NCBI GenBank assembly: GCA_049513515.1
Contig: JBEKWA010000002.1
Span: forward strand, 117,129-149,128
Direction: 5' to 3'
Source of the DNA: Steroidobacteraceae bacterium
GTDB lineage: Bacteria; Pseudomonadota; Gammaproteobacteria; Steroidobacterales; Steroidobacteraceae
DNA: 32,000 nucleotides
Shown here one piece after another: positions 2,575 through 23,376 of this stretch (position 1 is its first letter; each line of letters opens with the position of its first letter). The notes under the pieces were generated by a model, which had not been told where the DNA came from, made no database searches, and worked only from the letters and a program-made list of their open reading frames with translations. Position numbers and translations under genes: made by a program.

Positions 2575-3381
2575 TTAGGTCAGGCCGTGTGCCGAGCCGA
2601 CGGCGGTAAGACCGCCCAGCAAGAACCCGAGCTCCGTGAGCTGCTGAACGGCGCCGAGACAATCGCCCGTGTAACCGCCGATTCGGTGCCGCAGATAAAG
2701 GCCCGTCGCGAGCGCAAGCGCGGCGGCCGCGCAAGCACCCGTGCCGAGCGCTGCCCAATCGAGCGGGGCGCCGTCACGTGTGTACGCCCACGCGAGCGGC
2801 GCCAGGCCGAGAAGACCCAAGACACCGCTCAAGATCCAGTCGCCGCCGCCCAAGCGGCCCGCAAATGCTTTCGATTTTGCGTCCGCGTCCTCGCGCACGT
2901 AAGGCAGAAAGGCGATGAGGCCGATGGCGTACCAACGGCTCACCACGTGCGATGCCAGCACGCTCTGCACGAACAGCGCGCTCGGCAGGGCGGCCAGCGT
3001 CGTCCACTTCAGGCCGAGCATGAAAAACAATCCGATGGCGCCGAAGGCGCCGATGCGCGAGTCCTTCATGATGGCGAGGACGCGCTCTTTGGAACCGCCC
3101 CCGCCCAGGCCGTCGCAGGTATCGGCGAAGCCGTCCTCGTGAAAAGCGCCGGTGAGCAGCATCGATACGGCCATCATCAGGCCGATCGATACGCTCGCGG
3201 GCAGCCGGCGGCTCGCAATCCACCAGACCAGGATATTGACGAGCCCGATCAAGACGCCGACCAACGGGAAATAGCGAGTCGACTGCGAAAGCCAGCTCTG
3301 GTCGAATTCGCGCAGGCGCGGCGTCGGCAGACGTGTGAGAAATTGGGTCGCCACACACAACAACCGCAATTGACGGCTCAT
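2575..3381 (-). CDS. cobS: adenosylcobinamide-GDP ribazoletransferase (cobalamin synthase)
   Basis: This is the 2575..3840 ORF trimmed to MSRQLRLLCVATQFLTRLP (268 aa). It is a polytopic membrane protein with HEDGFADTCDGLGGG and GGYTGDCLGA motifs. Its ATG at 3381 overlaps the cobT stop as ATGA. Confidence 0.9.
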   Translation of the reverse strand: MSRQLRLLCVATQFLTRLPTPRLREFDQSWLSQSTRYFPLVGVLIGLVNILVWWIASRRLPASVSIGLMMAVSMLLTGAFHEDGFADTCDGLGGGGSKERVLAIMKDSRIGAFGAIGLFFMLGLKWTTLAALPSALFVQSVLASHVVSRWYAIGLIAFLPYVREDADAKSKAFAGRLGGGDWILSGVLGLLGLAPLAWAYTRDGAPLDWAALGTGACAAAALALATGLYLRHRIGGYTGDCLGAVQQLTELGFLLGGLTAVGSAHGLT

Positions 3382-4415
3382 TCGATTTTTTCGCTCACTC
3401 CCGCGCCCTCGAACGTCGCCATCTCGTTGAAGAGGGCGACGGCCGCGTGCACCACGGAGAAGGCGAGCGCAGCGCCGCTGCCCTCGCCGAGTCGCATGTC
3501 GAGATCGAGGAGGGGCCTCACCCCAAGATGCTCGAGCAATCTCCTGTGCGCCTGTTCCTGCGAGTAGTGTCCGAACACGCAATAGTCGAGTACGGCCGGT
3601 GCGACGCGCGCCGCAATCGCCACGGCAACCGTCACGGTGAAGCCATCGACGATCACGAAGTGACGCTGCGCCGCCGCGCCGAGCACTGCGCCCACGAGCA
3701 TGGCGATCTCGCAGCCGCCGAACTCGGCGAGTAACTCGACGGGGTCCTCGGGCGGCGCACGCCGTTCGCGGGCGGTGCGCAGAATGCCGAGCTTGCGCTC
3801 GAGGCCCGCGTCGTCGAGGCCGGTGCCGCGCCCGACGCACTCTGCCAGCGGCAGTCCCGTGAGCCCGTGCATCAGCATCGCCGCGGCCGCCGTATTGCCA
3901 ATGCCCATCTCGCCGAGAACGAGGTTATTGCCGTCCGGCGGCACGATGCGCTCCACGATCCTGCGGCCCTGGTCGAGCGCCGCCCGACACTCGATCTCGC
4001 TCAACGCGGCCTCGACGGTGAAGTCGCGCGTGCCCCGGCGAACCTTCGCCTGGATGAGGCGCGGATGCGCTGCGCAATCGGCGTCGACCCCGGCGTCGAC
4101 GATCCAGAGCTCCATGCCCTGCAGGCGCGCGAGCACGTTGATGGCGGCGCCGCCGGCGAGGAAGTTCTTCACCATTTCTGCCGTGACGGCGCGAGGATAG
4201 GCGCTGACGCCGCGGTCAGCGACGCCGTGGTCGGCTGCGAACACTACGGCGACCGGCCGAGATACGGACGGTGTCAGCGTTCTTTGCGCGGCGCAAATTT
4301 GTGCCGCAAGTGCCTCGAGCCGGCCGAGTGCACCCAGCGGTTTCGCGAGCGTATCGAGACGACGATGCGCCGCGGCGAGAACCGCCGCGTCTGCCTTCGC
4401 AATTGCCACCACCAT
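3378..4415 (-). CDS. cobT: nicotinate-nucleotide--dimethylbenzimidazole phosphoribosyltransferase
   Basis: The 345 aa ORF carries LGRLE...AADHGV...GEMGIGNTAAA...EGSGAA motifs typical of CobT. A GAGGTGG Shine-Dalgarno lies just upstream of the ATG. It is the first gene downstream of a cobalamin riboswitch. Confidence 0.92.
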   Translation of the reverse strand: MVVAIAKADAAVLAAAHRRLDTLAKPLGALGRLEALAAQICAAQRTLTPSVSRPVAVVFAADHGVADRGVSAYPRAVTAEMVKNFLAGGAAINVLARLQGMELWIVDAGVDADCAAHPRLIQAKVRRGTRDFTVEAALSEIECRAALDQGRRIVERIVPPDGNNLVLGEMGIGNTAAAAMLMHGLTGLPLAECVGRGTGLDDAGLERKLGILRTARERRAPPEDPVELLAEFGGCEIAMLVGAVLGAAAQRHFVIVDGFTVTVAVAIAARVAPAVLDYCVFGHYSQEQAHRRLLEHLGVRPLLDLDMRLGEGSGAALAFSVVHAAVALFNEMATFEGAGVSEKIE

Positions 4416-15885: not shown

Positions 15886-16272
15886 TCAGCGAGCGGGCGC
15901 GGAGAAATCCTGGATGGAAATGCCGAGAATCGATTCGACGCAGCGCCTGAATTCGGCCCGGTTCCATCGGGCGGTGCCCCGTCCGATGAGAGCGGAGACC
16001 TTGTCGAATTGGCTCTTGCTTATGTTGGTGACGCCCGCCACGACGACGCGCAAGCCCGGTGACGCCGGTACCGCGGCGACGAACACGGCGATCTGAAGAT
16101 CGAAGAATTCCGCAAATCGCGGCGAGGGGTTATCGCCGCGTTGCGCCCGTAGGAATGCGTCGATTTTCGGCTGGTTCGGCACGCGCCTGAGAAAACTGAG
16201 GCGTTCCGCGCTACTCGCGCAGTCGGGCAGGCTTGCCTCCTGAAATAGCAGATTGTGTCCGGTCTCGATCAC
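15886..16272 (-). CDS. hypothetical protein (128 aa) with a possible degenerate XRE-type HTH at the C-terminus
   Basis: This is a GTG-start ORF in a visibly lower-GC stretch. Its third codon positions are still GC-biased, which supports coding. The C-terminal SKSQFDKVSALIGRGTARWNRAEFRRCVESILGISIQDF loosely resembles a Cro/C1 HTH. I recognise no family. Confidence 0.4.
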   Translation of the reverse strand: MIETGHNLLFQEASLPDCASSAERLSFLRRVPNQPKIDAFLRAQRGDNPSPRFAEFFDLQIAVFVAAVPASPGLRVVVAGVTNISKSQFDKVSALIGRGTARWNRAEFRRCVESILGISIQDFSAPAR

Positions 16273-16372: not shown

Positions 16373-17467
16373 CTAATGCGGCAGCCGGATCACCAGCAAG
16401 TTGTTGGTCACATCGTCGACGACGGCGAAGTTCAAGGCGCCGTCCTCGTCCACGCGCGTGTCGATCCCGAATGCGCCGCCCTGGCTGGCATCCACGTCGT
16501 ACTCCCGGACGAAATCGCCCCAGCGGGTGAATTCGACGATCTCGCTCGGGTGCAGCGGATCCGCATTGACCGCATCTCCATTGACCGTCAGCAAGTGCCC
16601 ATTCGGGGCGAACCGCAGGGCGAGCGGGCCGCGTAGATGCTCATTGGCGAACACCACCGCTCCCTTGTCCTTCGCATTCGATCTGTGTTTCGCATTCGGC
16701 ACAGAATAGATCGCATTGTCGTTGGTCGAGGCCACGTACAGCGTATCGGTGCCTGCGTCGTAGGCGAGTCCCGTCGGCCCCAACACCACCGCCGCCGCAT
16801 TCGGGACGTGCGAATAGCCCTCGGCAATCGTCGTGATCTGCTCCAGGGTCACGTTGCTCGAGCCCACCGATACGTCGAGCCGGGAAACCGTACCGTTCAA
16901 CACGTTGGACACGAAGATATGAGCATAGCTGCCGAGGTCATCGATGGTGAGATCCCAGGGTCCGTCGAGAAACACCGGATCGGTCCATGTCTGGATCAGC
17001 TTGCCGTGTCGATCGATCACCTGCAGCGCGCCGCGACCTATCGTGGCGAATGTACCGTCCTTCGTCGACACGTTGCCCACGACGACAAATCCGCCGCGCA
17101 GCACGCCAAGCGCCGTCGAGAGCCCGGGAAGCTTGCTGGTGAAGAACGCGATCGCCGTGCCCGGCGGGGCTATCGGACCGTGCGCCGGCTGGCGAACGAT
17201 GGTGGTTCCCGTTCCCTGGACATTACCGCTGTCGTTGAAGTTCGCCACCAGAACATCGCCGGCGGCAATGCCGCCGCCGCCAGGGAACCCGTCGGGCACG
17301 AATGCGACCCCATAAGGGTTGACGTCGCCGTTCGCAGGGATGGTCGAGGAGTTGATCGCAGCCGGTAGGAATGCGTCCTGCGCGAAGGCTCCGGTGAGTC
17401 CTGCCGTCAAGGCCAAACCCACAGCAAGGGTGATCCTCGACGCATGAGACTTCATGTTCGCTTTCAT
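16373..17467 (-). CDS. secreted beta-propeller (NHL/SGL-like repeat) protein of unknown function
   Basis: A GAAGAGGGA Shine-Dalgarno precedes the start. The signal peptide is MKANMKSHASRITLAVGLALTAGLTGAFA/QDA. Repeated strand-turn blade-like segments follow (DVNPYGVAFVP, GPWDLTIDD, PTGLAYDAGTDTLYVAS, GPLALRFAPNGHLL). The N-terminal blade motif resembles that of the 21310-23376 protein. Confidence 0.75.
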   Translation of the reverse strand: MKANMKSHASRITLAVGLALTAGLTGAFAQDAFLPAAINSSTIPANGDVNPYGVAFVPDGFPGGGGIAAGDVLVANFNDSGNVQGTGTTIVRQPAHGPIAPPGTAIAFFTSKLPGLSTALGVLRGGFVVVGNVSTKDGTFATIGRGALQVIDRHGKLIQTWTDPVFLDGPWDLTIDDLGSYAHIFVSNVLNGTVSRLDVSVGSSNVTLEQITTIAEGYSHVPNAAAVVLGPTGLAYDAGTDTLYVASTNDNAIYSVPNAKHRSNAKDKGAVVFANEHLRGPLALRFAPNGHLLTVNGDAVNADPLHPSEIVEFTRWGDFVREYDVDASQGGAFGIDTRVDEDGALNFAVVDDVTNNLLVIRLPH

Positions 17468-17617
17468 GGGTATCCCTCTTCATTCATTGTTGACGAACGT
17501 TCGATGACGGAACTGGTGTCGGTAGGTGCCGCGACGGCGGCGAAAGGTTTTACCCGGGCTCAAAATAAATGGATGAGGCAGCCCTCGAAGGGCATCGAGC
17601 CCTATAATGCGGCGTCG

Positions 17618-18400
17618 ATGGATGCACAGGTGCTCATTTCAGCGAAATGGATCGCGCCCATTGCAGCGCTCGTCACGGTGCGTCTCGATCGCGGCGCCGT
17701 GCTCACGGTGCTGCTCGGCTTGATGACGCTGCCCTGTGTCGGCCGTGCGCAGGGCACGTGGAGCGGCTCCATCGGCGGCACCAGCAATTATGTTTACCGC
17801 GGCATCTCGCAGACCTATAACGGTGCCGCGCTGCAGCTCGGCGGCAGTTATCAAAGCCCGCTCGGCTGGTTTGCGGGGGCGTGGGGCTCGAACGTGAATC
17901 CCTATCCAGGCGGTGCGAGCTTCGAGGAACTCGACTTCTACGGCGGGCTGATCCGCTCCGTCGGCTCCGACTTCGCCGTCAAAGGCACGTACACCCACTA
18001 TTTGTACGTGCAGGATCCGCGACCCGCTCGTTACGACTACGACGAGATCGCCGTGAGCGTCGCCTACTTGGACGTGGTCGCGGCGACCGTATCCTATCAG
18101 CCGAACTACACATCTTATTCAGAGCTCGGCTTCGCCTATCGGCGTCCGGCAACTGCCTACGAGCTCACGGGCCGTTGGCCGCTGCGCTTCGGATTTGCGG
18201 CGACGGCCGGGGCAGGATACTACGATCTGCATCACCTTTTTGGGGTCGGCTACTGGGCCGGTGATGTCGGATTGGCATACGTCTACCGGCGCCTCACCCT
18301 GGGCGTCAGCCGCTTCTTCGCCGATACGACCGCGGCCACGCTCTACGAGGACGCGAGCGCCAATGGCAACTGGGCGGTTTCGGCGACCTGGCGCTTCTGA
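17618..18400 (+). CDS. TorF-family putative outer-membrane porin (Gcw_chp / TIGR02001-like)
   Basis: GTSNYVYRGISQTYNGAALQLGGSY...GAWGSNVN...ELDFYGG and the terminal ...WRF match my recollection of the TorF family. The start is uncertain. The ATG at 17618 lies only about 10 nt after a TATAAT box. The GTG at 17678 would give a cleaner signal peptide (VRLDRGAVLTVLLGLMTLPCVGRAQG). Confidence 0.7.
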   Translation: MDAQVLISAKWIAPIAALVTVRLDRGAVLTVLLGLMTLPCVGRAQGTWSGSIGGTSNYVYRGISQTYNGAALQLGGSYQSPLGWFAGAWGSNVNPYPGGASFEELDFYGGLIRSVGSDFAVKGTYTHYLYVQDPRPARYDYDEIAVSVAYLDVVAATVSYQPNYTSYSELGFAYRRPATAYELTGRWPLRFGFAATAGAGYYDLHHLFGVGYWAGDVGLAYVYRRLTLGVSRFFADTTAATLYEDASANGNWAVSATWRF

Positions 18401-18426
18401 CACAGGGGAGTTTTTGGTCGAAGGAT

Positions 18427-18452
18427 GAACCGACCGGGCGAGACGGGTTACT
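18427..18452 (+). promoter_or_regulatory. candidate ECF-type promoter (GAACC-N15-GTTACT) upstream of the sigma gene
   Basis: GAACC lies at 18427-18431 and GTTACT at 18447-18452, with exactly 15 nt between them. The same AACC-N15-GTTACT arrangement recurs at 21213-21238. An AAC-containing -35 element is typical of ECF promoters. Confidence 0.5.
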
Positions 18453-18500
18453 TACCCATGGTAGGTTGTGTCGGCGGCATGGTGCCCGGGAGCTCTTTTT

Positions 18501-19103
18501 TTGGAAGACTTCGAGTTGCGATCGAATCAATCCCCCGCGGTACGCACCGCGAACGACCGCGAACGACAGCTGATCTCCCGGATCGGCACCGGCGACCGGG
18601 ACGCGTTTCGCGAGCTCTACGTGCACTATCACAGGCGCCTGGCGCGATTTCTGACTCGCCTGACCCACCGCCAGGAGGACGCGGAGGAGATCATCAACGA
18701 TACGCTGTGGATCGTGTGGCAGCGCGCCGCGGAATTCCGCAATGCATCGCAGGTCTCGACGTGGATCATGGGCATCGCCTATCGGCGCGCGCTCAACATG
18801 ATCCGGCGCGCGGCGGCGCATGAGCGAGTCATGGCGCTGGAGAGCACCGAGGGGGAGGCGGCCGTCAACGATGCGGGGCAGACGACCGAGAATCGGCAGC
18901 TCCTGAATTACGCGCTTGCCCAGTTGCCCTTGGAGCAGCGCCTCGTACTCGAACTCACGTATTACCTGGATCATTCTTGCGAGGAGGTCGCCGAGATCAT
19001 GGAGTGCCCCGTGAATACGGTAAAGACGCGCATGTTCAACGCGCGGCGGAAGCTCCGGGCAATGCTGGCCGAGCACGGCGCAGAATGGGGGGCCGCTCCA
19101 TGA
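18501..19103 (+). CDS. ECF-subfamily RNA polymerase sigma-70 factor
   Basis: Region 2 is GDRDAFRELYVHYHRRLARFL...DAEEIINDTLWIVW and region 4 is LPLEQRLVLELTYYLDHSCEEVAEIMECPVNTVKTRMFNARRKLR. I prefer the TTG at 18501 as start because GGGAG lies 8 nt upstream and it falls downstream of the candidate promoter. The ORF-track GTG at 18468 is the alternative. Confidence 0.9.
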   Translation: MEDFELRSNQSPAVRTANDRERQLISRIGTGDRDAFRELYVHYHRRLARFLTRLTHRQEDAEEIINDTLWIVWQRAAEFRNASQVSTWIMGIAYRRALNMIRRAAAHERVMALESTEGEAAVNDAGQTTENRQLLNYALAQLPLEQRLVLELTYYLDHSCEEVAEIMECPVNTVKTRMFNARRKLRAMLAEHGAEWGAAP

Positions 19104-19786
19104 CCGTCGATCTGGAAGGCGCCCGCTGCGAGGAAGAGGCGGCCCGGCTCTTGCCGTGGTACCTCACCGGACGGTTGTCGGCCGCGGATCTCGAGCGCGT
19201 GTCGAGCCATCTGCAGCGCTGCGCAATCTGTCGCAACGATTTGGCGCACGAGCGTGCGGTGCAGGGGATTTTGAAGACCGATAACCGGATCGAATACGCA
19301 CCGCAGGCGAGTCTTGCGAAGATGTTCTCGCGCATCGACGAACTGGGTCGGGATGCTCCAACCGGGAGCAGTCCTGATCTCCCCCGAGCGTCCCCGCGCC
19401 GATTGCGCCCGGTGCAATGGCTGACCGCCGCGGTGCTAGTGCAGGCCGTCGCCCTCGGATGGCTGGGCGCGTCGTTGCGAGACCGGCCGCAGTCGGCCGT
19501 GCCGCCGGCGCAGTATCAGACGCTGTCGGCGGATCCCGTACCGCTGGCTCCCGGGCCGCACATCCGGGCAGTGTTCGCGCCGGCCATGACGCTCGCCGAG
19601 TTGAAGGCGCTCCTCTCATCGAACGACCTGACCATCGTGCGCGGTCCCAGCGAGGCGGGCGCTTACACGTTGGCTTCGACGCGCGCGATGCCCATGGGCA
19701 TCGAACCCGTCGTTGCGGCCCTGCGCACCGATGCGCGCGTGCTGTTCGTCGAAGCCGCCGTCAACGACACGCCGGCAGTGCGGTGA
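19100..19786 (+). CDS. zf-HC2 anti-sigma factor, single-pass membrane protein with a periplasmic C-terminal domain
   Basis: The ATG at 19100 overlaps the sigma stop as ATGA. The HC2 zinc motif is HLQRCAICRNDLAHE and the TM segment is VQWLTAAVLVQAVALGWLGASL. A periplasmic domain of about 90 aa follows (...TLAELKALLSSNDLTIVRGPSEAGAYTLA...). Confidence 0.8.
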   Translation: MTVDLEGARCEEEAARLLPWYLTGRLSAADLERVSSHLQRCAICRNDLAHERAVQGILKTDNRIEYAPQASLAKMFSRIDELGRDAPTGSSPDLPRASPRRLRPVQWLTAAVLVQAVALGWLGASLRDRPQSAVPPAQYQTLSADPVPLAPGPHIRAVFAPAMTLAELKALLSSNDLTIVRGPSEAGAYTLASTRAMPMGIEPVVAALRTDARVLFVEAAVNDTPAVR

Positions 19787-21042
19787 AAATTACGCCGCTC
19801 GGCGTCCTCCTCGCCGCCGCCGCGCTCGCCGGCTGCGCCGCGGTTCGCGCGCCGCGAGCGGACCTTCCGGCGGAGGTCCGCGGTGGCCCCGAGGGCTACG
19901 TCGTCGTTACCGTGAGAAACCCTCTGATCGGTCCCGGCGCGCACGCCGCATCTACCTCACGAGGCTATGACGCGGTGGGCGTGTACGGGGCAGGCAGCGT
20001 CGCCCGCGGAACCAGTCGGGCGCTCGCGGCCGATTATCATTTGCGCGAAGTGTCGAGCTGGCCGATTGCATTGCTCGGCGTGCATTGCCTGACGTACGCG
20101 CTGCCGAGCGGCGCGGATCGCGCACAACTACTCGCCGTTCTCACGCGTGATCCCCGAGTCGAGTCCGCGCAGCCGCTGCTCAGCTTCGAGACGGCATCCG
20201 GCGGCTATAACGATCCCTATGCCGATCTGCAAAACAACATACAACAAATGGCCGTACTCGAGGCTCAGGCCTTGAGTCGCGGCGCCAGCGTGCGAGTTGC
20301 GATCGTCGACACGGGCGTCGATGTGCGCCACCCGGACTTGCCCGCCAACGTCGTCGTGCGAAATTTCGTCGACGACGACACGGATGCATTTCAGGAAGAT
20401 GTTCATGGGACGGCAGTGGCGGGCGTGATTGCGGCGATTCCCAACAATGGGGTCGGCATCGCGGGCATCGCGCCGGACGTGCGTCTGTTCCTCTACAAGG
20501 CCTGCTGGCGAGCAGCCGCGACGGGAACCAAAGCGGCGTGCAATTCCTTCACGCTGGCACAAGCCCTGTCGGCTGCCATCGAAGCGCACGCCGACATCAT
20601 CAACTTGAGCCTCGCGGGCCCGAGCGACCCGCTGCTTACGCGTCTGATCGAGCGCGCCTCGGCAGCCGGCATCATAGTGGTGGGCGCCGTGCCGCCGGAC
20701 GGACTGCGTGACTCCTTCCCCACTAACATCGCCTCGGTGATCGCCGTCGATGCGCTGGAGAGCGGGCACACCAGCCCCGGTGTCTTGCGGGCTCCGGGCC
20801 GCGACGTGATGTCGCTCGCGCCGCGTGCGCATTACGACTTCTATTCGGGAAGTTCCCTTGCCACCGCAGAGGTGTCCGGCTTGGTGGCACTGCTGCGCGC
20901 GCAACGACCGCACTTGACGGCGCAGGATGCACGAGCGCTCCTGCTCGAGAGCGAGTCACCCGCGGATGCGGGCACCTCGCCGCCCAACGCCTGCGCCGCG
21001 CTCGAGTCGCTCGTGCACGGCAAGCGCTGCGCGAGCCGCTAG
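19783..21042 (+). CDS. S8 (subtilisin) family serine peptidase lipoprotein with an I9-like propeptide
   Basis: The GTG at 19783 overlaps the anti-sigma stop as GTGA. The lipobox is LLAAAALAG/C. The catalytic residues are Asp in AIVDTGVD, His in HGTAVAGVIAA and Ser in SGSSLATAEVSG. An N-terminal propeptide-like segment precedes the catalytic domain. Confidence 0.9.
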   Translation: MKITPLGVLLAAAALAGCAAVRAPRADLPAEVRGGPEGYVVVTVRNPLIGPGAHAASTSRGYDAVGVYGAGSVARGTSRALAADYHLREVSSWPIALLGVHCLTYALPSGADRAQLLAVLTRDPRVESAQPLLSFETASGGYNDPYADLQNNIQQMAVLEAQALSRGASVRVAIVDTGVDVRHPDLPANVVVRNFVDDDTDAFQEDVHGTAVAGVIAAIPNNGVGIAGIAPDVRLFLYKACWRAAATGTKAACNSFTLAQALSAAIEAHADIINLSLAGPSDPLLTRLIERASAAGIIVVGAVPPDGLRDSFPTNIASVIAVDALESGHTSPGVLRAPGRDVMSLAPRAHYDFYSGSSLATAEVSGLVALLRAQRPHLTAQDARALLLESESPADAGTSPPNACAALESLVHGKRCASR

Positions 21043-21097
21043 GACATTTACAAATAGCCGCAAGTCGCGGCCTCCACGTCACGACGCAGTTAGTACC

Positions 21098-21118
21098 CCG
21101 CGCGAGGCGCGCGGTTTT
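21098..21118 (+). terminator. rho-independent terminator after the S8 peptidase gene
   Basis: CCGCGCG-AGG-CGCGCGG forms a 7 bp all-GC stem and is followed by TTTT. Confidence 0.55.
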
Positions 21119-21212
21119 GCGGCAAGTCATGCTCGGCCTGCACGTGTCGCGGCGCCGTGAGTGATCGGATATCTCGCGGAAGTTCGCCGGCGGGACGAAA
21201 TATTTGCAGCGA

Positions 21213-21238
21213 AAACCCGACACCTTCGGTTCGTTACT
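21213..21238 (+). promoter_or_regulatory. candidate ECF-type promoter (AAACC-N15-GTTACT) upstream of the propeller-cytochrome lipoprotein gene
   Basis: AAACC lies at 21213-21217 and GTTACT at 21233-21238, with exactly 15 nt between them. It sits downstream of the 21098-21118 terminator and 72 nt upstream of the ATG at 21310. Confidence 0.5.
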
Positions 21239-21309
21239 CAGTTAGCGAAGACCGCACGGCGCGGATCGTTGCAATCGCACAAGACGCTGCGGCGTCGAGG
21301 ACACGAGGT

Positions 21310-23376
21310 ATGGTGTATCAATCAAAGTCGACGAGATCGGTTCTTAAATTCGCGCCGCCGGCGCTGATGCTCTTGCTGCTCGCGGCGTGCGGCGGCGACG
21401 GAGGAGGCTCGGGCTCCATGGCCGGCGGCGGCGGCGGTGGTGGTGGTGGTTACGGCGGCGGCGTTGCGGCCGCGGCGATCACCATTTCGCTGAGCAGCGC
21501 CAACATTCAAGTCGGGCAGAACACGACGCTCACCTGGTCGGTGACCAATGCCACCGCGTGCACGGCGAGCGGATCCTGGAGCGGGTCGGAATCCGTGACC
21601 GGGTCGAAAACGCTGTCGCCGACCGCGGCGGGCACGTACACGTACACGCTCATGTGCACGGGCAGCGGCGCGGCGGCGACCAAATCGACCACGCTGACGG
21701 TGGGCGCAGCCGCCGCGAGCAACGGGCCTTACACCTCGACCAGCCTGGTGGCCAACGCGGCGGGGAGTTCGGCACTCACGGTGGATGCCAATCTGGTAAA
21801 CCCGTGGGGTATCGTCTTCGCACCCAACGCATCGGTCTGGGTGGCCAACAACGGCAGCAGCACCTCGACCTTGTATGACGGCAGCGGCAACCCGCAACCG
21901 GCCACGTCTCCCTTGGTGGTGACATTCACCGCCAATGCCGGCCACCCCTTCGCGCCGACCGGCGTTGTCGCCAACGCGACGAGCGATTTCGTCGTGAGCT
22001 CGGGCGGCAAATCCGGCGCCGCGAGCTTCATCTACGTGGGTGAGGGCGGAACGATCGCGGGCTGGTCGTCCGCGGTCAATCCTGCCGCGGCGGTGACGGT
22101 GTACACGGATGCCGGCGGTGCGGAGTACACGGGAGCCGCGCTCGCCTCGAACGGCGGTCAAAATTACTTGTACGCGGCCGATTTCCACAACAACAAGATC
22201 GACGTGTTCAACGCGACGTTCGTGAAGCAGACGCCGTCGGCGAGCAGCTTCGCATTCGCCGATCCCAGCCTTCCCGCGGGATATGCACCGTTCGGCATTC
22301 AGGCGATCGCCAACGGCAGCGGCGGGGCGACGCAGATCTACGTGGCGTATGCGCAGCAGAAGGCGCCGGACAACTCGTTTGCCAGCATCGGAGCGGGATT
22401 GGGCCTCGTGGATGTATTCGACGCGAGCGGAACGTTCACCATGCGCTTGATCGCCACGGGCGGCGCACTGAACGCCCCCTGGGGCATCGCGCTCGCACCC
22501 GCGGACTTCGGACCACTCAGCAATGATCTCTTGGTCGGCAATCTCGGCGACGGGAAAATCAATGCTTTCGACGCGGCAAGCGGCAAATTGATCGGCCCGA
22601 TCAGTGACTCTCATTCCGATCCGATCGCAGTGCCGGGCCTCTGGGGCATCGCCTTCGGCAACGACAGCGCCAACCAGCCGCACAACACACTCTTTTTCGC
22701 CGCAGGCACGAATGACGGCAGCGGCGGTGAATACGGCCGCATCGACCCAGGCGCAACGCCGCCGACTCTGGACGGTACGGCGGCCGTGACGGTGATCGCC
22801 CCGAGCGCAACCGTGAGCGGCACGGTCGCGCTGACTGCGCAGGTGGGCAGCAGCGTCAGCGTCGAGCAAGTGGAATTCTTCGCCAACGGGAAAGCCATCG
22901 GGACGGCCGACGCGTCACCCTTCTCGGTTCAGTGGAATACCACGACCAGCGCCAATGGAACGGTAACCCTGACGGCGACCGCGAAAGAAGGGTATGGCAA
23001 GGTTGCCAATTCGGCTCCCGTCACGGTCACTGTCAACAACGCCGCCCCCGCCGCGACGCTGACGGAATTGCAAGCGCAGGTCTTCGGTCCCATTTGTTCC
23101 GGGTGCCATAACGGAGTGGGTGCCAGCCTGCCCGGTGTGCAGAACCTGACTTCAGCGGCGGCGACGTATGCATCTTTGGTGAACGTGCCGAGTATCGAGC
23201 AGCCGAACCTGCTACGCGTCAAGCCGGGCGATCCCACCGACAGTTACGTCATTCACAAGCTCGAGGGCCTGGCGGGCATCACGGGTGCGCGCATGCCGTT
23301 CGGCGGCCCCTATCTGTCGACCGCGACGATGAACCAAATCGAGTCGTGGATTGCCGCGGGCGCGCAGAACAACTAA
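21310..23376 (+). CDS. lipoprotein combining an Ig-like domain, a TIGR03118-like beta-propeller, a second Ig-like domain and a C-terminal Planctomycete-type cytochrome c (PSCyt1-like, CxxCH) domain
   Basis: The ATG at 21310 has a GAGG Shine-Dalgarno. The lipobox is LLLLAA/C with the Cys codon at 21388-21390, followed by a poly-Gly linker. An Ig-like module follows (TLTWSVTNATACTASGSWSG...YTYTLMCTG). The propeller spans about 21727-22750 (DANLVNPWGIVFAPNASVWVANNGSSTSTLYDG). A second Ig-like domain spans about 22780-23058. The tail spans 23059-23373, with the heme motif CSGCH at 23095-23109 in the context VFGPICSGCHNG...KPGDPTDSYVIHKL...ARMPFGGPYLS...IESWIAAGA. Confidence 0.8.
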   Translation: MVYQSKSTRSVLKFAPPALMLLLLAACGGDGGGSGSMAGGGGGGGGGYGGGVAAAAITISLSSANIQVGQNTTLTWSVTNATACTASGSWSGSESVTGSKTLSPTAAGTYTYTLMCTGSGAAATKSTTLTVGAAAASNGPYTSTSLVANAAGSSALTVDANLVNPWGIVFAPNASVWVANNGSSTSTLYDGSGNPQPATSPLVVTFTANAGHPFAPTGVVANATSDFVVSSGGKSGAASFIYVGEGGTIAGWSSAVNPAAAVTVYTDAGGAEYTGAALASNGGQNYLYAADFHNNKIDVFNATFVKQTPSASSFAFADPSLPAGYAPFGIQAIANGSGGATQIYVAYAQQKAPDNSFASIGAGLGLVDVFDASGTFTMRLIATGGALNAPWGIALAPADFGPLSNDLLVGNLGDGKINAFDAASGKLIGPISDSHSDPIAVPGLWGIAFGNDSANQPHNTLFFAAGTNDGSGGEYGRIDPGATPPTLDGTAAVTVIAPSATVSGTVALTAQVGSSVSVEQVEFFANGKAIGTADASPFSVQWNTTTSANGTVTLTATAKEGYGKVANSAPVTVTVNNAAPAATLTELQAQVFGPICSGCHNGVGASLPGVQNLTSAAATYASLVNVPSIEQPNLLRVKPGDPTDSYVIHKLEGLAGITGARMPFGGPYLSTATMNQIESWIAAGAQNN
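21424..21462 (+). repeat. in-frame trinucleotide tract (GGC)4(GGT)5 TAC (GGC)3 encoding G9-Y-G3
   Basis: I read this directly at 21424-21462. It lies just after the lipobox in the linker of the 21310-23376 protein. Confidence 0.9.

Follow-up and report, generated by a model that had tools for sequence, protein, structure and literature searches.

A conserved ECF sigma factor, anti-sigma factor and S8 lipoprotein cassette and its predicted regulon of exported proteins

How is a sigma factor of the extracytoplasmic function (ECF) type released when the gene that overlaps its anti-sigma gene encodes a subtilisin-family lipoprotein, and which exported proteins does it then control? This question is raised by positions 16373-23376 of a 32,000-nucleotide stretch of Steroidobacteraceae DNA (contig JBEKWA010000002.1), here called the window, which has a G+C content of about 65%. 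By open reading frame (ORF) listing, codon-position G+C and hidden Markov model (HMM) scans this region contains six genes, A to F, and not the seven adjacent genes counted in an earlier note on the same DNA: (i) gene A encodes an exported beta-propeller on the minus strand, (ii) gene B encodes a TorF-family outer-membrane barrel and is divergent from A, (iii) genes C, D and E encode an ECF sigma factor, a zf-HC2 anti-sigma factor and an S8 lipoprotein, and (iv) gene F encodes a lipoprotein with a TIGR03118 domain and a c-type cytochrome-like domain. We suggest, with a probability of about 0.5, that the genes make up a self-activating envelope signalling cassette in which E acts on D and in which propeller and haem lipoproteins are the output.

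The conserved core of the cassette

Genes C, D and E match the family models expected from the earlier note and are joined by the two overlaps described there, ATGA at 19100-19103 between C and D and GTGA at 19783-19786 between D and E (features lie on the plus strand unless stated otherwise). Gene C (18501..19103) encodes a 200-aa protein from a TTG start at 18501 that was placed by alignment of orthologous loci. The protein consists of sigma regions 2 and 4 only (Sigma70_r2, PF04542, and r4_2, PF08281) and scores 87.7 bits against TIGR02937 (cut-off 42.9), which identifies it as an ECF (group IV) sigma factor. It reaches none of the NCBIfam equivalogs such as RpoE, AlgU, SigK and SigW, the best being NF009168 with 131.6 bits versus 236, and its closest solved relatives are AlgU and RpoE (66 bits). 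An S8 context is not mentioned in the main text of the ECF classification paper, and the sigma group may well be catalogued in that classification yet unstudied.

Gene D (19100..19786) encodes a single-pass protein of 228 aa that by its motifs and predicted structure is a class I (zinc-binding type) anti-sigma factor. It matches PF13490 with 26.3 bits (cut-off 22.2), and H37, C41 and C44 of its zf-HC2 motif H-x3-C-x2-C (19208-19231) are invariant in 58 homologues. The AlphaFold model has a helical N-terminal anti-sigma domain, a single transmembrane helix at about residues 104-127 (about 19418-19477) and a periplasmic β-α-β-β-α-β domain (19559-19783) that ends the protein and whose fold, residues 154-220, is modelled with a pLDDT (predicted local distance difference test) of 85-92. 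Gene E (19783..21042) encodes an S8 (subtilisin-family) lipoprotein of 419 aa with a lipobox LAGC (19825-19836) and an N-terminal prodomain-like region (19894-20199). Its catalytic Asp lies at 20305-20316, its His at 20404-20412 and its Ser at 20848-20862. Its assignment to S8 is based on PF00082 (106.7 bits) and on similarity to subtilisin BPN' (E=1e-28), and the lipobox Cys18 as well as D176, H208, N274 and S357/S358 are invariant in 27 homologues. Mycosin, the top NCBIfam match of E, was rejected, TIGR03921 scoring 133.6 bits versus 278.75 and no ESX genes being found nearby.

Gene B (17618..18400) encodes an outer-membrane beta-barrel of 260 aa that ends …TWRF. The two models TIGR02001 (77.6 bits versus a cut-off of 47.15) and PF09694 (60.1 bits versus 24), the signal peptide and the C-terminal aromatic residue all identify it as a TorF/Gcw_chp protein, as the earlier note had it. 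Alignment of orthologous loci places its start at a conserved ATG at 17618; the automatic start in the contig (17504) would overlap the promoter of gene A. A housekeeping-type -10 element, the TATAAT box at 17604..17609, is invariant in four orthologous loci and has variable flanks. The box lies 8 nt before the ATG (17604-17620) and therefore the TorF mRNA may be almost leaderless. The gene is followed by a terminator-like hairpin with a T-run (18394..18418). A literature search found no functional work on the TorF family.

One genome per species was scanned for relatives of the S8 protein, yielding 299 loci, of which the best 80 were analysed with 10-kb flanks. The anti-sigma gene is located directly 5' of the S8 gene in 73 of the 76 loci with sufficient sequence, the sigma gene was found in 68 of 70, and 57 of 67 loci have a TorF gene ahead of the sigma gene. 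The loci without a recognised TorF, mostly from Rhodanobacteraceae, have in the same place a barrel-like ORF that ends …W-x-F and for which BLAST and Pfam give no match. The hosts are Steroidobacteraceae, Rhodanobacteraceae (Dyella, Luteibacter, Frateuria, Rhodanobacter), Burkholderiales and Rhodocyclaceae, and the S8 protein has >2,200 relatives in the protein collection. Gene A is restricted to 11 of 62 loci, the closest ones, where it is always divergent from TorF. Of the 53 long loci, 29 have a gene for a TIGR03118 protein or for a haem-only lipoprotein (haem and immunoglobulin-like (Ig) domain) at a distance of up to 10 kb, with variable position and on either strand. Because these accessory genes vary while the core recurs, we conclude that B-C-D-E is the conserved core and that A and F are lineage-specific additions.

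The earlier note had taken all these genes to be one unit and had made its proposal depend on their adjacency in other genomes. The six-gene block does recur in the closest relatives, the loci designated L082 and L084, which keep the A-F order with other genes on both sides, and the TorF-sigma-anti-sigma-S8 core recurs across several proteobacterial families. The expected neighbourhood of sigma, anti-sigma and S8 genes is thus present, and the TIGR03118 gene, which was expected to accompany them, varies between loci. As only 11 of 62 loci have gene A, the conserved unit is smaller than the one originally drawn.

Some loci depart from this layout. In two Steroidobacteraceae metagenome-assembled genomes (MAGs) the S8 gene stands directly after TorF with neither sigma nor anti-sigma gene between them (L013 4043-5482 and L015 9896-11335) and is preceded by a 14.2-bit copy of the promoter motif described below; this variant could reveal a role of the protease without an anti-sigma partner. 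A full cassette occurs on a contig labelled Gemmatimonadota (L049, JBLMYK010000136.1), and a close homologue of gene A (P0273, 75% identical) is labelled Candidatus Binataceae, which points either to horizontal transfer or to mistakes in binning.

A shared promoter motif and the genes predicted to respond to it

The sequence TGAACC-N15-GGGTAC-N-TAC is conserved between the TorF and sigma genes and was detected with a loose pattern in 55 loci. A weight matrix made from these 55 sigma-upstream instances, from which the window's own contig was left out, scores at least 13 bits at 142 places in 1.33 Mb of locus sequence versus 9 in a reversed-sequence control. At this threshold the motif precedes the sigma gene in 69 of 73 loci, gene A in 11 of 14, TIGR03118 genes in 14 of 23 (19 of 23 at 10 bits or more) and the genes for haem-only (cytochrome-c) lipoproteins in 13 of 26; the corresponding figures are 2 of 59 for TorF, 2 of 83 for S8 and 0 of 14 for EAL genes.

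In the window only three matches exceed 8.1 bits, all of them inside the cluster, and the next ones are near 8 bits. The best is the putative autoregulatory promoter of gene C (18424-18459; GATGAACC-N15-GTTACTTAC; 26.6 bits), the second lies before gene A on the minus strand (17518-17553; GTAAAACC-N15-GGCACCTAC; 18.6 bits) and was absent from the earlier note, and the third is an orphan motif on the minus strand that faces the 3' end of the S8 gene in antisense direction (21085-21120; 17.8 bits). The earlier note had proposed that a shared promoter-like motif links the sigma gene to the last gene of the block. The shared motif is real, and in the window the copy before F is weak (21210-21245; CGAAAACC-N15-GTTACTCAG; 8.0 bits, rank 5 of ~64,000 positions). 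The motif of gene A is conserved in L002, L082 and L084, that of gene F in L002 and L056 (13.6 bits), L082 and L084 with diverging upstream sequence, so that both are kept in orthologous loci although the neighbouring sequence diverges. Moreover, unlinked homologues of A carry the motif ~55 nt upstream (L085 6910-6945, 23.3 bits; L086 6918-6953, 15.5 bits), and the regulon thus seems to include genes that are unlinked to the cassette.

Because an ECF sigma factor normally reads the promoter of its own operon and the same motif precedes A, F and their relatives, we place these genes in the predicted regulon of sigma C, which presumably reads the motif. In total, the module and its regulon are well supported by these sequence comparisons, and the idea that the sigma factor controls the flanking exported proteins gains from the motif before A, the TIGR03118 genes and the cytochrome-c lipoprotein genes. 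The inclusion of TorF is not supported: with the motif upstream in 2 of 59 loci only, and with its own TATAAT box and terminator-like site, TorF appears to lie generally outside the regulon. It is a constant neighbour, and it could be a conduit for a signal or a substrate.

The predicted targets and the protease are all exported. By inspection, every non-regulatory product has an export signal as stated earlier, a Sec signal in A and B and a lipobox in E and F. Gene A (16373..17467, minus strand), a predicted sigma target, encodes a Sec-exported six-bladed beta-propeller of 364 aa. The Sec signal expected for it is present and ends …GAFA before QDA, and the AlphaFold model is an all-beta propeller with 24 strands and a pTM (predicted template modelling score) of 0.82. 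The best solved matches in Foldseek are six-bladed propellers of the NHL, SGL and YncE type (E ~1e-7, TM-score ~0.5), and a soluble glucose dehydrogenase (2ism) is also among the structural matches; they give the fold of A and not its function. The protein has no match among Pfam and NCBIfam HMMs, and its family, labelled COG3391 'YncE-like' by the Joint Genome Institute (JGI), comprises >7,798 homologues and has no Pfam model. The earlier note had described A and F as related propellers. This holds in a weak form only (BLASTP E=0.007; hhalign E=1.5e-3, probability 17%; one blade motif), and membership of A in TIGR03118 was rejected, no HMM match being found at E up to 0.01 and the similarity being that of one blade. 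When A and F were compared by sequence with the proteins of solved structure, no match was obtained.

Gene F (21310..23376) encodes a lipoprotein of 688 aa whose start, an ATG at 21310 behind a conserved GAGG, and lipobox LLLLAAC were placed by alignment of orthologous loci. The lipobox and a poly-Gly tether (21370-21462) are followed by an Ig/PKD-like domain (21478-21705), a TIGR03118 domain that covers model positions 1-335 of 336 (21730-22752; 307.9 bits versus a cut-off of 79.95), a Big_7 domain (22789-23040; 44 bits) and a C-terminal c-type cytochrome-like domain (23056-23373) with the motifs CSGCH (residues 596-600; 23095-23109) and RMPFGGP (23287-23310). A literature search found neither functional work on TIGR03118 nor a characterised member. 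The haem-c motif noted earlier in the last gene is present as CSGCH; CxxCH is found in 34 of 35 homologous domains, and the Met of the downstream RMPxGGP is conserved. Of the families proposed for the block, the HMM scans support TorF, ECF sigma, zf-HC2, S8 and TIGR03118 (in F), and leave PSCyt1 (PF07635) without a match at E up to 10 to the isolated 113-aa haem domain. Because CxxCH and the distal Met are conserved in an exported protein, we retain 'c-type cytochrome-like' as a motif-based description of this domain.

The CxxCH…RMPxGGP domain occurs as a module with different fusion partners, namely TIGR03118 in F, a pair of CHRD domains plus Big_7 in L061 (6228-7759, plus strand), and a Big_5-like Ig domain alone in lipoproteins of ~280-290 aa in L002 (12372-13244, minus strand) and, similarly, in L011, L032, L037, L058 and L062. 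All these proteins have lipoboxes, and several have poly-Gly tethers. The 5' leader of F from the -10 element to the ATG (21246-21309) is near-invariant in the window, L082, L084, L002 and L056, is more conserved than either flank and contains a palindrome, GACGCTGCGGCGTC, just before the ribosome-binding site. A scan of the cluster with Rfam, including this leader, found no known RNA family.

Weaker copies of the motif in other taxa precede genes for a cytochrome b561, an FdtA-like cupin, an MtrA-like decahaem cytochrome, a CHRD–Big_7–haem lipoprotein, metallophosphoesterases and a 150-aa uncharacterised protein. In several Proteobacteria MAGs a gene for a conserved protein of 144-162 aa lies directly 3' of S8 behind a strong copy of the motif (16.7-25.4 bits; L024 11313, L027 1709, L028 5861 and L029 10528, all on the plus strand); these proteins have no signal peptide and no Pfam match. 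In L051 (~2860-3960, minus strand) a 366-aa exported protein is encoded ~240 nt downstream of a 19.2-bit motif (4196-4161); it has an N-terminal CVQCH followed by an apparent beta-barrel, has no Pfam match and, as we take it, resembles fused cytochrome–porins of the Cyc2 type.

The orphan motif is located just past the S8 gene. The terminator described earlier between E and F is present as a GC-rich hairpin with a 7-bp stem and TTTT at 21098-21118, the probable terminator of the sigma operon, in a segment that is absent from the closest relatives; a consensus terminator scan, which requires five T, did not report it. Equivalent minus-strand orphan sites are found in L084 (7282-7317, 19.9 bits) and L082 (7305-7340, 12.8 bits), and in L002 and L056 the homologous site would drive a minus-strand gene for a haem–Ig cytochrome-c lipoprotein that is missing in the window. 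The window has a decayed second copy at the homologous place (21153-21188, minus strand; 7.6 bits), and its strong copy lies in a window-specific insert, the same one that forms the terminator hairpin. The possibility that the 17.8-bit motif is a repeat was rejected, the segment being present once in the window. The orphan site could give rise to a sigma-dependent antisense or small RNA, or it could be a relic.

How the sigma factor could be released

Combining these data, we suggest a model in which the cassette is autoregulated and the single-pass zinc-finger protein D would hold sigma C at the inner membrane. The gene for D is translationally coupled to that for E, and the TorF barrel, with its own housekeeping-type promoter, is encoded just upstream. 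As a periplasmic lipoprotein E would bind the periplasmic domain of D and, upon a signal, cleave it. This cut would be the site-1 cleavage, a role taken by DegS, Prc or PrsW elsewhere, and intramembrane proteolysis would then free the sigma factor. Freed sigma would read TGAACC-N15-GGGTAC-N-TAC before its own operon, before A, more weakly before F, and at the orphan site antisense to E. The output would be periplasmic or surface-tethered propeller and haem-c lipoproteins with an extracytoplasmic redox or degradative task. A redox or degradative function of this output is likely; the redox version is only suggested, by the conserved haem motif and by the cytochrome b561 and MtrA-like decahaem cytochrome genes behind weaker motifs elsewhere.

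Signal relay by proteolysis, which the earlier note had proposed, is plausible, the S8 gene being tied by translational coupling to one particular family of anti-sigma domains. With a profile of the D domain, 1,127 clusters were identified among the 1.84 billion representatives of a library, and the best 150 are proteins of ~200-290 aa or fragments, nearly all with the domain at the very C-terminus. Members of the family end 3 to 14 residues (usually 9 or 10) past the conserved Glu of a '…LR-x-D-x-x-V-x-F-A/V-E-P' strand, which we take to be the layout of a subtilisin propeptide (I9 family) after cleavage. Among four distant members that were sampled, the S8 gene comes next in three; two of these have Gcw_chp and sigma genes upstream and the third is on a 2.3-kb contig, and in the fourth, from a nanopore assembly, no S8 gene was called. 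The genomic coupling of the D domain to an S8 lipoprotein with intact catalytic residues is thus firm.

Weak structural and profile matches also connect the D domain with propeptides. The modelled D domain has the β-α-β-β-α-β topology of I9 propeptides, without matching the Inhibitor I9 profile. In Foldseek, pro-subtilisin E (3whi) ranks 3 and 5 (root-mean-square deviation (rmsd) 2.8-3.1 Å), and a furin-bound PC1/3 prodomain as well as the BPN' prosegment follow at lower ranks; the propeptide matches have E-values of 0.03 or worse, and all matches are weak. An hhalign comparison of the C-terminal domain of D (69 sequences) with the N-terminal domain of S8 (78 sequences) gives E=1.2e-4 at a probability of 55%, versus E-values of 0.02-0.8 in 12 controls with reversed or unrelated alignments, and the extended alignment brings the C-terminus of D level with the invariant YNDPY junction between the N-terminal domain and the mature part of S8. 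Because of the propeptide-like layout and the weak similarity to the N-terminal domain of E, we propose that E binds and cuts the D domain.

Several points weigh against this reading. The Foldseek matches of the D domain all have E-values of at least 0.016 and are shared with ferredoxin-like folds (ribosomal protein S6, BLUF, ACT, RRM). With shallower alignments the hhalign comparison falls to E=0.02 and a probability of 2%. Neither the D domain nor the N-terminal domain of S8 matches a Pfam family at E up to 10, Inhibitor_I9 included, the profiles of the two domains match no solved propeptide, and the best 150 matches of the D-domain profile are anti-sigma-like proteins only, with no S8 protein among them. 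On the output side, no activity is assignable to either propeller, A or F, the motif before F is weak in the window, and the haem domain of F lies below the threshold of the Pfam cytochrome models, with Cytochrome_CBB3 as the only match (14.4 bits versus 27, E=0.05). The assignment of the motif to sigma C follows the usual autoregulation argument. Finally, a co-transcribed protease could equally be an output and not part of the switch.

A more specific version of our model is that the periplasmic sensor domain of D is a copy of a subtilisin propeptide, tethered and already cleaved. E would be held, or held off, by this copy until a signal allowed the protease to destroy it, as subtilisins do with their own propeptides; the sigma factor would thereby be freed, and a sigma-dependent antisense transcript would feed back on the protease gene. 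We regard this version as doubtful; the mimicry of a propeptide is a lead from several weak, independent lines and not a finding. If true, the propeptide switch would be an undescribed class of site-1 mechanism for ECF signalling, represented by >1,000 protein clusters.

Alternatively, with the same cassette and regulon, the S8 protein would be an output protease for quality control, maturation or shedding of exported lipoproteins in the envelope, comparable to DegP under RpoE, and the anti-sigma factor would be inactivated by a DegS- or Prc-type protease encoded elsewhere or through the redox or zinc state of HxxxCxxC. The S8 gene is part of an autoregulated operon and so would itself be induced, the lipoproteins of the regulon have long, processable poly-Gly tethers, the zinc-binding anti-sigma (ZAS) motif of D is invariant, and the prodomain resemblance of the D domain is weak, all of which fit this view. 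However, S8 accompanies the anti-sigma gene in 73 of 76 loci and has a gene for a TIGR03118 protein or a cytochrome-c lipoprotein no more than 10 kb away in 29 of 53, it follows 3 of 4 sampled distant members of the anti-sigma family, the D and E genes overlap, and the D domain scores ~100-fold better against the N-terminal domain of S8 than the controls do. Because E tracks the anti-sigma gene far better than any target gene, we disfavour this alternative, which is possible if somewhat unlikely.

In another scenario TorF and S8 would act together as an outer-membrane device for the export, display or release of poly-Gly lipoproteins at the cell surface, and the sigma/anti-sigma pair would merely tune expression. 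That TorF nearly always adjoins the cassette would be explained in this way, as would the finding that S8 and the targets are lipoproteins without Asp at +2 and that the targets have long flexible tethers. We consider this scenario improbable: the literature search found no translocation role for the TorF family, the motif is missing before TorF in 57 of 59 loci, and the specific periplasmic domain of the anti-sigma factor would be left unexplained. Chance neighbourhood, with the shared motif as a coincidence of GC-rich sequence, would fit the differences in the accessory genes A and F between genomes and the weak motif before F in the window, and is hardly credible given a core kept in ~70 genomes, a six-gene order kept while the flanks change, 142 motif matches versus 9 in controls concentrated before particular gene families, and the motif at unlinked homologues of A.

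Relation to known systems and neighbouring genes

A literature search found no characterised system of this composition, as the earlier note had supposed. One of the closest parallels is RpoE/AlgU, in which RseA/MucA is cut by DegS/AlgW and then by RseP. The similarities include an ECF sigma factor whose closest solved relatives are AlgU and RpoE, a single-pass class I anti-sigma factor with a periplasmic domain, an output of envelope proteins, an autoregulated operon and a -35 element of the GAAC type. Unlike in that system, the sigma factor of the cassette reaches no named equivalog and its -10 element is GGGTAC-N-TAC, the anti-sigma factor combines zf-HC2 with a periplasmic domain of an unrelated kind, the co-encoded protease is a lipoprotein of family S8 and not an S1 PDZ protease, and the cassette has an outer-membrane barrel gene and no RseB-like gene. 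With FecI–FecR–FecA, where site-1 cleavage is carried out by Prc, the cassette shares a plausible three-compartment layout of barrel, anti-sigma factor and ECF sigma factor in which a periplasmic protease is implicated. It differs in that FecR, STN and TonB-receptor domains are absent from the cluster and its neighbours, TorF is a small barrel (~240 aa), and the protease is S8 and operon-encoded.

Subtilisin propeptides (MEROPS I9) are intramolecular chaperones and inhibitors that are degraded by the mature enzyme. The D domain resembles them in its β-α-β-β-α-β fold, in the 'V-x-F-A/V-E-P' strand with a short free tail and in having pro-subtilisin E among its best structural matches; however, it is fused to an anti-sigma factor and not to a protease, the S8 protein keeps an N-terminal domain of its own, and the D domain has no HMM match to Inhibitor_I9 or to solved propeptides. 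Propeller dehydrogenases are combined with cytochrome c in quinohaemoprotein alcohol dehydrogenases, in sorbosone/aldose dehydrogenases with a cytochrome domain and in cytochrome cd1. F is similar in joining an exported propeller domain to a CxxCH…Met domain and differs from these enzymes in that no cofactor-binding signature was identified.

The literature search for ECF sigma or anti-sigma factors in combination with subtilase or S8 found only a proposal for the actinobacterial ECF54 group, according to which control is exerted by neighbouring carboxypeptidase, subtilase or CHAT proteins (PMC8999054). In ECF54, too, a subtilase gene is conserved beside the ECF sigma gene and proteolytic control is a proposal. 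However, ECF54 has no anti-sigma factor (PMC8999054), the proposed target of the protease is the sigma factor itself, the phylum is a different one, and no zf-HC2 partner or TorF barrel has been described for it.

The cassette is thus widespread and conserved, has probably never been studied and probably represents envelope sensing of an undescribed kind. ECF sigma factors are very common signalling devices of bacteria, and only a minority of their groups have a known signal and release mechanism. The four-gene module of barrel, sigma factor, anti-sigma factor and subtilase is widespread in soil and peat Proteobacteria, and its clear promoter motif and predicted regulon make it directly testable. 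Should the subtilase turn out to open the switch, the known routes of sigma release would gain a further protease family and a sensor domain that resembles a propeptide. In addition, the regulon provides a first functional lead for three large, uncharacterised families, namely TIGR03118, the YncE-like family of A and the modular CxxCH domain, all of which are abundant in soil metagenomes.

The window belongs to a metagenome contig of 182 kb (ENA ERZ27249949). The genes around the block appear to be separate from it. Upstream are genes for a family-B DNA polymerase (PolB) and a T2SSE-type ATPase and a small ORF, and downstream are genes for NarL-type response regulators, an EAL protein and sensor kinases; all were rejected as members of the unit, as they differ in L082 and L084 and have no motif. 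The small ORF (15886-16272, minus strand), which lies between the T2SSE ATPase gene and gene A, encodes 128 aa and has no family match. Its homologues in L002 and L056 are 70-72% identical, and because ~3 kb separates the ORF from A in these two loci, it is placed outside the module.

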